A stretch of 64,000 nt of DNA from Escherichia coli. Lineage in GTDB: Bacteria; Pseudomonadota; Gammaproteobacteria; Enterobacterales; Enterobacteriaceae. The position numbers were made by a program. How positions within the stretch are numbered: the first letter of the stretch is position 1; each line of letters starts with the position of its first letter. Shown here piece by piece: positions 21,801-24,800 of this stretch. The DNA lies in the NCBI RefSeq assembly GCF_016026235.1, contig NZ_CP065613.1, one strand, 5' to 3'.

Positions 21801-24800
21801 ACCTAAAATCGAACCCAACACCGTACCGCCAATACGTTCGAAGGCGCGAGGGACAACGTTACCCCAGAACGAGATTGGCCCCATAATCACCACCATGGTG
21901 ACCAGCGGCCAGGTGCTTTCCGGGATAGTAAACAGGCGGATAATGAGAAAAGTGAGCAGGAATGCCAGCGCGACCCGAGTACCATGCACAATGCGGTAAT
22001 GGCGGTATACCCGGATTTCAAACGGGCTTAATGACTTATCGGCACGCACGCAGAAACTCCGTAATGAAGATTAAAAGCGCTCATAACACATCTGTCGGCC
22101 AGAAGGCGCGCCTCTGAGTTATCCGACGGACATACCGGGAACAGTGTAATTTCCCGGCAGGAGCGAAAAATTTGAAAGGCGCATCTTACTCTTTTCGCTT
22201 TCAAAAAAAGAGTGGTCTTCGCGTCAACACACCGCCCTGAGATGAATTAGTGATGTTTTGGCTGCACCGCAACATACATTTCGATATCCCAGTACCCATC
22301 TTCCGCGCCATTGTTCAAGTAAACCTCGAAGCAGGGCTTTGGTAACATTTCATAAGCACTGTCCTGCAAGAGGCTATTAAAGAACTGATACCAGGGTTTA
22401 GCAAAATCATCACCGACTACACGAGCTACCGCCACCGCATACTGACCACCTGAAATTTCTGTCAGAATGACGCCCTCACTGTTTTCGGGAAGCGTAAAGT
22501 AACCCGGCACCGTCACGACGGTGTCGCAGCGTAATTTTTCGGCGGGTGTTTCATCTGGATTGTCGTAATAGATAGCAACCCACTCCTTCGGCACAATATT
22601 TTTACTATCTACCCACATCATCAACTGCTCAAAACCTTTCTTTACCGTCTGTTCCCACGGGCCAACGAGATGGAAACCTGCAACGGTACGTTTATCTTCC
22701 TGCTTAATCTCGTAGTTCATGACGCCTCCATTAATACTGTTTTTATATACAGTATAGTTGCAAAATTAAAACCACAAGGAATGAGTGTTGATTATGCGAG
22801 CAGACTCGCACTCCTGCCAGTCTGCTGCAAAAGAAAGGTCAGGCCTTATGGTGGAAATAATCACTCAGGCGGGAAAACATGCCGCCTTCCCCGACAGATT
22901 CCAGGGTAACCAGCGGCCAGTGCGCCACCTGTTTATCACGGTCGTAAAGTTCAATTTCCCCTACCCGCTGATGGGCGCTAATTGGCGCGGTGAGCTCTTT
23001 ACCATCAAGGGTATATTTGGCTTTGATATGTGGAATTTCGGCTTTCGGTAGCACCATCCAGAACTCTTGTTCCGTTCCCAGGTCGATATTTTCTTTATCG
23101 CCATACCAGATGCGTTCCGTTCCGACCTTTTTCCCACGGCGCAAAATTTGCACCGTAGTAAAGTTTTGTTGCCCCCAACGTAGTAATTTTCTTGCCTCTT
23201 CCTCACGACCTTTTGCACTGTCAGCCCCCATTACCACTGCAATGAGACGACGCTGCCCATCTACAGCCGAAGCAATGAGATTAAACCCGGCACCAGAAGT
23301 ATGACCCGTTTTCAGGCCGTCAACATTCATGGTTTTATCCCACAACAACCCGTTACGGTTTTGCTGGGTGATACCGTTCCAGGTGAGGCTTTTCTCACTG
23401 TACATATGATAAAACTCGGGCTCGCCGTGGATGATAGCGCGAGAAAGCACAGCTAAATCATAAGCCAAGCTATGCTGGCCAGGTGCATCCAGACCATGCA
23501 CTGTTTCAAAATGCGTATCCTTGAGATGCAGCTTCTCGGCATAGTTGTTCATCATTTCAACAAACTGCCGTTGCCCACCGGCAATATAGTCAGCCAGTGC
23601 AACACAAGCGTCATTTCCGGAATCCACAATTAAACCACGGCTTAAATCACGTACCGATACGCGATCGCCCTCTTTCAAAAACATCAGTGAAGAACCGACA
23701 AACACCGGATTATCTTTCGCCCACGCATCGCGCCCCACGGTGACAATATCGTCTGGCGTAATGCGATGACTATCGATAGCGCGATCCACGACATAGCCCG
23801 TCATCAGCTTTGTCAGGCTGGCGGGATTGCGCTGTTGATGCTCATTACCCGCGGTGAGAATCTGACCGGTGGTGTAATCCATCAATACCCAGGACCCGGC
23901 ATGAATCTCTGGAGGCTGAGGTGAAAAAGGAATGTTTTCCGCCGCAAAACCAGACGATAAATTAAAAACGAACAAAGAAGCAGCAATAATAAGACGGCGT
24001 TTCAACAGCAAACCCTCAGGTGTTTCAAATAGCTGTTCTTTTTACGGAAATACTTATGAACTGGCTGGAATAAAGTGCAAGAAAATGTGACTACTATCTC
24101 ATTTTTATCTGACATGATCTGTTGCCACTCGCTGCCAAATTGTCGCGCTAAAGCTGATTAGCACGGTGATATTTGATACTCTGGCAGACAGCAGAAATAA
24201 CGGATTTAACCTAATGATGAATGACGGTAAGCAACAATCTACCTTTTTGTTTCACGATTACGAAACCTTTGGAACGCACCCCGCGTTAGATCGCCCTGCA
24301 CAGTTCGCAGCCATTCGCACTGATAACGAATTCAATGTCATCGGCGAACCCGAAGTCTTTTACTGCAAGCCCGCGGATGACTATTTACCCCAGCCTGGAG
24401 CAGTATTAATTACCGGTATTACCCCGCAGGAGGCACGGGCGAAAGGAGAAAACGAAGCCGCGTTTGCCGCCCGTATTCACTCGCTTTTTACCGTACCGAA
24501 GACCTGTATTCTGGGCTACAACAATGTGCGTTTCGACGACGAAGTCACACGCAACGTTTTTTATCGTAATTTCTACGATCCTTACGCCTGGAGCTGGCAG
24601 CATGATAACTCGCGCTGGGATTTACTGGATGTTATGCGTGCCTGTTATGCCCTGCGCCCGGAAGGAATAAACTGGCCTGAAAATGATGACGGTCTACCGA
24701 GCTTTCGCCTTGAGCATTTAACCAAAGCGAATGGCATTGAACATAGCAACGCCCACGATGCGATGGCTGATGTGTACGCCACTATTGCGATGGCGAAACT

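Follow-up and report, generated by a model that had tools for sequence, protein, structure and literature searches.

The predicted LexA operator of sbmC (gyrI) in Escherichia coli: comparison with described SOS boxes, conservation and promoter context

The operator of umuDC is a classical LexA operator of Escherichia coli and is among the tightest ones. The 20-bp sequence of this operator, TACTGTATATAAAAACAGTA, is also that of the LexA box of sbmC (gyrI, b2009) in strain K-12 (PMC3009722 Table 4), and, despite the identical 20-mer, the published heterology index (HI) is 2.1 for umuD and 2.8 for sbmC (PMC11228462 Table 1). The promoter context of the two boxes differs, in that sbmC adds a CRP-S site as well as stationary-phase and biphasic behavior. 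Treatment with AZT induced K-12 sbmC 5.7-fold, and expression after AZT was 9.5-fold lower in a non-cleavable lexA3 background (PMC11228462). sbmC was also UV-induced on tiling arrays (PMC3009722), and an sbmC promoter-GFP fusion was UV-induced with a biphasic response, the promoter not being predicted to be sigma-70 dependent (PMC5999292). Reviews list sbmC among the genes with verified SOS boxes, induced both by SOS and in stationary phase.

The orthologous sbmC of Salmonella enterica likewise carries one box just 5' of its ATG and is nalidixic acid-inducible; the box was reported 21 nt from the ATG with an HI of 6.32 and a 3.55-fold nalidixic acid induction (PMC8072944), so that its published HI is weaker than that of E. 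coli (6.32 vs 2.8). Cameron and Redfield (2006; PMC1635313) reported that, apart from SOS control, sbmC has a non-canonical CRP-S site (core TGCGA), that its induction needs CRP, cAMP, and Sxy, and that its promoter acts by a class I mechanism. Of the E. coli genes examined there, only sbmC doubles as a classical SOS gene with a LexA box.

Here we describe the sbmC locus in a window of 64,000 nt of E. coli (NCBI RefSeq assembly GCF_016026235.1, contig NZ_CP065613.1), the whole stretch of DNA that was analyzed. Judging from its sequence, position, and conservation, we have hardly any doubt that 22735..22754 is the known LexA operator at the sbmC (gyrI) promoter of E. coli.

The sbmC gene and its LexA box

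The features of the gene and of the box are as follows (coordinates of the window; the evidence is given in brackets).

22247..22720, minus strand: sbmC (gyrI) coding sequence, 157 amino acids, DNA gyrase inhibitor (open reading frame, Pfam, PDB, RefSeq annotation)
22725..22729, minus strand: Shine-Dalgarno sequence GGAGG of sbmC (sequence; nearly invariant in the cross-genus alignment)
22733, minus strand: difference from K-12 MG1655, gene-strand T in the window as against C in K-12 (alignment; 2 nt downstream of the box)
22735..22754, minus strand: predicted LexA operator (SOS box) of sbmC (consensus match, leave-out matrix, conservation)
22737..22739, minus strand: core of the promoter-distal (ATG-proximal) half-site; gene strand CAG, + strand CTG
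22750..22752, minus strand: core of the promoter-proximal half-site; gene strand CTG, + strand CAG
22841..22839, minus strand: dacD stop codon (the dacD coding sequence ends at 22839)

The open reading frame at 22247..22720 is identified as SbmC/GyrI by its GyrI-like sequence, its length, and its yeeA-sbmC-dacD-sbcB context. Its product matched the Pfam family GyrI-like PF06445 (2.7e-32, residues 1-152) and PDB entry 1JYH, "DNA gyrase inhibitory protein" (1.3e-108, residues 1-157). The gene order is tmaR-yeeA-sbmC-dacD, with sbcB divergent. A 901-nt region of this locus was present in 5,419 of the 5,426 complete E. coli genomes, with RefSeq-annotated sbmC beside dacD, and the sbmC region of the window showed 100% identity to E. 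coli strain SW07091.

An earlier note on this DNA had placed a near-perfect CTG-N10-CAG palindrome at 22735-22754, immediately upstream of sbmC, and had related it to the known SOS regulation of the gene. The coordinates proved exact: the window reads TACTGTTTTTATATACAGTA on the + strand and TACTGTATATAAAAACAGTA on the gene (minus) strand, and the CTG and CAG cores (+ strand 22737-22739 and 22750-22752) flank a 10-nt spacer made up entirely of A and T. "Near-perfect" is a fair description, 8 of the 10 dyad pairs being complementary, and this symmetry would allow LexA to bind the box in either orientation. "Immediately upstream" is correct for a gene read on the minus strand, where the box ends at 22735 and the ATG occupies 22720..22718; the 14 nt in between contain the GGAGG. 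As for the known regulation, the 20-mer is that of the K-12 sbmC box (PMC3009722 Table 4), for which LexA-cleavage-dependent induction has been published (PMC11228462 Table 1).

The box agrees with the consensus TACTG(TA)5CAGTA at 18 of 20 positions. When up to three mismatches were allowed, it was the sole match in the 64-kb window (with two mismatches), and no match was found in 100 shuffles. The bare CTG-N10-CAG core behaves otherwise: the window holds 25 copies, for which dinucleotide shuffles give an expectation of 11.3 and the CTG and CAG trinucleotide counts of the window one of 29. Because the apparent excess is explained by trinucleotide usage and vanishes under the trinucleotide counts, enrichment of the core was dropped as evidence. 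The bare core is uninformative, and it is the full 20-mer that is distinctive.

Scoring against a LexA matrix had been proposed in the same note as the check, with a poor score as the outcome that would tell against the site. We built symmetrised log-odds matrices from the LexA boxes of Table 4 of Thomassen et al. (2010; PMC3009722), that is, from 16-17 other E. coli boxes, leaving out sbmC in one run and both sbmC and umuD, whose 20-mer is identical, in a second, and scanned the whole window. The sbmC box scored 26.1 bits without sbmC and 25.4 bits without sbmC and umuD, which is far from poor given a maximum possible score of about 29 bits, and only one or two of the 18 known K-12 boxes scored higher, the weakest in the training set being polB (13.2 bits). 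In 200 first-order Markov simulations of 64-kb sequences, the best score was 19.8 bits, and the maximum per sequence averaged 12.4 +/- 2.2. The Berg-von Hippel heterology index of the sbmC box calculated from the same counts was 0.6-2.4, depending on the counts used, and was among the lowest of the 18. Two other LexA-like sequences, 18432..18451 (11.3 bits, the runner-up in the window) and 44509..44528 (10.7 bits), were rejected as they score below polB and lie inside the simulated chance range. The sbmC box is thus a useful positive control for motif scanning, with the proviso that the rule works when the full 20-mer is scored and not the bare core.

Comparison with K-12 shows how little has changed. 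The K-12 gene has the identical 20-mer, the same 14 nt to the ATG, and the same neighbors yeeA, dacD, and sbcB; in the protein, residue 9 near the N-terminus is E in K-12 and D in the window, a difference of one amino acid. The 118-nt dacD-sbmC intergenic region differs from that of MG1655 by one base (22733), which is outside the box. By sequence, then, this site is an already known one that departs from K-12 only at a single flanking base. The exact 76-nt promoter variant of the window was found in only 192 of 4,687 matching genomes. With a textbook SOS operator intact in this strain, DNA damage should induce sbmC here as it does in K-12.

Conservation of the box among Enterobacteriaceae

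Species-representative genomes were scanned with the SbmC protein, which yielded 80 loci from Escherichia, Citrobacter, Salmonella, Enterobacter, Lelliottia, Kluyvera, Leclercia, Klebsiella, Raoultella, Atlantibacter, and others. The best matrix match in the 250 nt upstream lay 14-25 nt before the ATG in 77 of the 80 loci. Within 60 nt of the ATG, the best box had a median score of 21.6 bits over the 80 species representatives, and the score equaled or exceeded that of the weakest training site in 75 of the 80 species. Control scores stayed at or below 11.4 bits for shuffled 60-mers and at or below 5.5 bits for other 60-mers of those loci. In box-anchored alignments, the information content was 1.8-2.0 bits at TGTAT and ACAGT and about zero from -20 to -6; anchoring on the best match inflates the conservation inside the box, an effect that the shuffle control covers. 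We regard the sbmC box as a phylogenetic footprint on the strength of these alignments.

In Salmonella, the boxes found by the scan were CACTGTATATAAATACAGTG (diarizonae) and TACTGTATATAAGTACAGTA (arizonae), each 16 nt from the ATG; the Salmonella box is thus 2 nt farther than that of E. coli from the ATG, and also 2 nt farther from the CRP-S-like site. The box was lost in Escherichia sp. MOD1-EC7003, in which the sbmC match ends at residue 82, and GC-rich sequence takes its place in Klebsiella michiganensis DSM 25444.

The two halves of the dyad are conserved unequally. The ATG-proximal (promoter-distal) CAG was present in 79 of the 79 loci having a box, while the promoter-proximal half on the gene strand was CTG in 38 of them, GTG in 24 (Enterobacter, Lelliottia, and Leclercia), and ATG in 9 (Klebsiella and Raoultella). 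The Enterobacter version of the operator reads TAGTG...CAGTA, and the Klebsiella version ATATG...CAGTA. Conservation extends to the TTA/TA that directly precedes the box, and TA-TAnT is maintained. Unequal conservation of the halves together with a maintained TA-TAnT would be expected if the proximal half also served as a -10 hexamer. A tentative reading of the comparison, possible but one that we would not favor as it stands, is that the proximal half doubles as the -10 and can decay as a LexA half-site provided that TAnnnT is kept. The substitutions suggest that sbmC may be partly or wholly freed of SOS control in the genera with GTG or ATG, and that E. coli keeps an operator of umuDC strength. 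The identity of the site in the window is unaffected by this reading.

Predicted promoter anatomy and the CRP-S-type site

Three further elements lie between the box and dacD.

22751..22756, minus strand: candidate -10 hexamer TATACT, with a C before it at 22757 (predicted)
22772..22777, minus strand: candidate -35 element TTGTGG (predicted from alignments)
22795..22810, minus strand: TGCGA-N6-TCGCA palindrome, CRP-S-type site (conservation and literature)

The last four bases of TATACT are the first four bases of the LexA box. We infer that TATACT is the -10 hexamer of sbmC because the TTA/TA just 5' of the box is conserved across genera though LexA does not require it, because its position fits a class I geometry with the CRP-S site, and because it fits the 5' edge of the UV-induced sbmC transcript, which was placed at about 22746, inside the box, on tiling arrays of 7-nt resolution (PMC3009722). 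Transcription would then start at about 22744. The TTG core of the candidate -35 is nearly invariant across genera. The spacer between the candidate -35 and -10 is 15 bp in E. coli versus 17-18 bp in Citrobacter, Salmonella, Enterobacter, and Kluyvera, and a simple sigma-70 consensus scan did not call this proximal promoter. In the Kim 2012 set of transcription start sites, which comes from undamaged cells, there was no start at the sbmC promoter, and the one start listed lay within dacD, 571 nt upstream, with 2 reads; this is compatible with repression, and it neither proves repression nor places the promoter.

In E. coli, the center of the TGCGA-N6-TCGCA palindrome lies 48.5 nt 5' of the base with which the box begins. 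As TGCGA-N6-TC(G/A)CA, the block is invariant within Escherichia, and in 59 of 79 loci it is centered 48.5-51.5 nt upstream of the box, most often 51.5 nt. If the start is assumed to be 7 nt after TATACT, the center falls at -61.5 with the modal spacing and at -58.5 in E. coli. The former is the classical class I position. The exact geometry of the E. coli promoter is accordingly uncertain, with its 15-bp spacer and a CRP-S center at about -58.5 instead of -61.5.

This palindrome is probably the published CRP-S site of sbmC, the site sequence being given as a figure in PMC1635313. It shares the defining C6/G17 core with other CRP-S promoters (e.g., ppdD and yrfD; PMC1635313), a likeness that concerns the element neighboring the LexA box and not the box itself. 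It is by conservation and the literature that the site is identified; the sequence by itself would not suffice. The palindrome differs from the canonical CRP core TGTGA-N6-TCACA by two mismatches, and such matches number 25 in the window against 29.9 expected, i.e., as many as chance provides. Our first reading of the conserved block as a distal sigma-70 promoter, CTGGCA-18-CATAAT, and a sigma-54 reading made by eye were both dropped in favor of the TGCGA-N6-TCGCA dyad and the CRP-S literature. A dacD-proximal hairpin at 22795..22829 (-24.6 kcal/mol, z = -3.05) was set aside as a separate element, since it lacks a U-tract and the CRP-S dyad makes up its 3' arm.

Alternative readings, regulatory model and natural variants

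That the palindrome is a chance AT-rich dyad, or a mere promoter element that LexA does not use, is scarcely conceivable. The bare CTG-N10-CAG is indeed common (25 in the window and 29 expected), and the region is AT-rich promoter DNA, but the matrix score exceeds the best of 200 simulated 64-kb sequences by 6 bits, the 20-mer is identical to the umuDC operator, its position is fixed in 75 of 80 species while the flanks drift, and the K-12 induction is LexA-dependent. The box might instead chiefly control another target, either yeeA, reached by read-through, or a + strand transcript antisense to the 3' end of dacD. There is a promoter-like match on the + strand, TTAATA-16-TATAGT at 22731..22758, yeeA is among the UV-induced genes (PMC3009722 Table 5), and the stretch between sbmC and yeeA showed neither a terminator-like nor a promoter-like site. 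The + strand match, however, follows from the palindrome itself, with no conserved ORF or RNA downstream of it, where a search of Rfam families gave no matches; yeeA has its own start inside sbmC in K-12 according to start-site data from undamaged cells, and in nearly all genera the box tracks the sbmC ATG at 14-22 nt. Read-through into yeeA would moreover supplement the control of sbmC and not replace it, and we judge this explanation very unlikely.

Somewhat less remote, and still improbable, is that the LexA site is real but works as a roadblock or anti-activation element, transcription starting farther upstream, e.g., from CTGGCA-18-CATAAT at 22820..22791, so that LexA bound at about +30 to +50 would stop the polymerase from elongating or from escaping the promoter. 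This sequence was the only promoter-like match on the minus strand of the region in the consensus scan, it lies in a highly conserved block, and the proximal promoter has a poor -35 and, in E. coli, a 15-bp spacer. The conserved upstream block is nevertheless better explained by the published CRP-S site, TGCGA-N6-TCGCA, which at the modal spacing would be centered at the class I position of -61.5 relative to a start lying 7 nt beyond the proximal TATACT. On the tiling arrays, the UV transcript had its 5' edge at about 22746 and not at about 22784 (again at the 7-nt resolution of the array), and the TTA just 5' of the box is conserved though unneeded by LexA.

Returning to the reading of 22735..22754 as the LexA operator of the proximal sbmC promoter, everything that can be judged at the level of sequence agrees with it: the core dyad, the fit to the consensus, a position next to the (predicted) promoter, and conservation. 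In undamaged cells, a LexA dimer would occupy the CTG-N10-CAG dyad at 22735..22754 and would keep RNA polymerase off the sbmC promoter. Occlusion is the likely mode of repression because the box shares the final four bases of the likely -10 and also covers the predicted start (about 22744). Upon DNA damage or replication arrest, RecA filaments would stimulate the self-cleavage of LexA, the operator would be vacated, and sbmC would be transcribed; SbmC/GyrI would then bind gyrase and limit gyrase-mediated DNA breakage. CRP-cAMP together with Sxy would provide a positive input to the promoter via the CRP-S site about 50 nt upstream (22795..22810), and the promoter is expected to be induced in stationary phase as well.

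The erosion of a half-site, the fixed CRP-S spacing, and the splitting of the operator by an insertion sequence in some E. coli lineages are incremental observations that could interest students of SOS regulon rewiring. A junction with an ISL3-family element splits the sbmC operator in 120 of the 5,426 complete E. coli genomes (about 2%), and such a split would amount to a natural uncoupling of sbmC from LexA and from its own promoter. In E. coli CAVP773, the ISL3-family element ISEc53, with a ClbS/DfsB-family gene, lies inside the sbmC operator and is flanked by an 8-bp target duplication, ATATAAAA; about 1.9 kb thus lies between the CTG half with the promoter on one side and the CAG half with sbmC on the other.

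Half-site variation and exceptions to box conservation

Among the sbmC loci of 79 species, the promoter-distal CAG of the LexA box (window 22735..22754, minus strand) is invariant, and the promoter-proximal half-site is CTG in only 38/79, GTG in 24/79, and ATG in 9/79. Among the sbmC-region loci from other genomes (numbered L001 onward), those noted for proximal variation are L025-L041, L049, L054, L056-L058, and L061-L074. The proximal half-site overlaps the -10-like hexamer of sbmC and, judging from these sequences, sbmC may be under weaker LexA control in Enterobacter, Lelliottia, Klebsiella, and Raoultella. 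Three loci were exceptions to the conservation of the box.

Exceptions to conservation of the sbmC LexA box (positions are those of each locus)
L081, Escherichia sp. MOD1-EC7003, about 1470-1750: LexA box deleted (...caaacatactg/attggagg)
L078, Klebsiella michiganensis DSM 25444, about 1440-1500: GC-rich sequence instead of the box, as far as the conserved 'attttatcaacagtggagg'
L075, Intestinirhabdus alba: top-scoring box 166 nt upstream

Because the box is deleted and the SbmC match ends at residue 82, sbmC of Escherichia sp. MOD1-EC7003 is probably a pseudogene.

An ISL3-family element, ISEc53, was observed within the sbmC LexA box of E. coli CAVP773 (L083; NZ_CM176349.1, 600-2514), at a point equivalent to window 22741..22748. 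This element of ~1.9 kb, which carries a transposase and a ClbS/DfsB-family passenger gene, is bounded by the inverted repeats GGGTCTTCCCC/GGGGAAGACCC and flanked by an 8-bp target duplication (ATATAAAA), leaving the CTG half and the promoter on one side and the CAG half and sbmC on the other. Among 5,426 complete E. coli genomes, 120 carry the IS/LexA-box junction.

Promoter spacing and the upstream CRP-S site

From the conserved TTG(TGG) -35-like element (22772..22777) to TATACT (22751..22756), the spacer measures 15 bp in E. coli; E. albertii and E. coli E69 have 16 bp, whereas Citrobacter, Salmonella, Enterobacter, and Kluyvera have 17-18 bp. A 15-bp spacer is unusually short for the candidate sbmC promoter of E. 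coli, and this shortness might be linked to the reported non-sigma-70, stationary-phase behaviour of the promoter.

Further upstream, a TGCGA-N6-TCGCA dyad (22795..22810) matches the published description of the sbmC CRP-S site, which requires CRP and Sxy (PMC1635313). The dyad is unchanged throughout Escherichia and is kept across genera, its distance to the LexA box being fixed at 48.5-51.5 nt. At the RNA level, the dyad doubles as the 3' arm of a stable hairpin located directly after dacD (22795..22829; -24.6 kcal/mol, z = -3.05).

Downstream yeeA and other LexA-matrix matches

The gene downstream of sbmC is listed among the UV-induced genes (PMC3009722, Table 5).

20991..22049, minus strand: yeeA

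No terminator-like or promoter-like consensus was found in the sbmC-yeeA gap (22050..22246), and it is therefore possible that yeeA is transcribed by read-through from the LexA-controlled sbmC promoter. K-12 TSS data, however, place a yeeA start within sbmC, 318 nt upstream of yeeA.

The runner-up matches to the LexA matrix in the window, 18432..18451 (11.3 bits) and 44509..44528 (10.7 bits), were rejected as operators on scores below that of the weakest known box and inside the chance-maximum range for 64 kb; on sequence grounds, they are probably not LexA operators. Their heterology index (HI; lower is closer to consensus) as computed here is about 13. Published HI values are 2.1 for umuD and 2.8 for sbmC (PMC11228462, Table 1), despite the LexA 20-mers of the two genes being identical in PMC3009722, Table 4.

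Other elements in the window

Rfam matches, counted at the gathering score, fit the expected E. coli his and O-antigen neighbourhood with an upstream IS copy.

9014..9250, plus strand: IS102 RNA
27220..27294, minus strand: sRNA STnc240
30033..30156, plus strand: His operon leader
56801..56839, minus strand: JUMPstart element

In SW07091, the 100% identical strain (L001 1-1290, corresponding to window about 19100..20400), the annotation just past tmaR shows an IS110-family transposase pseudogene with a frameshift, together with a microcompartment gene of the EutP/PduV family.
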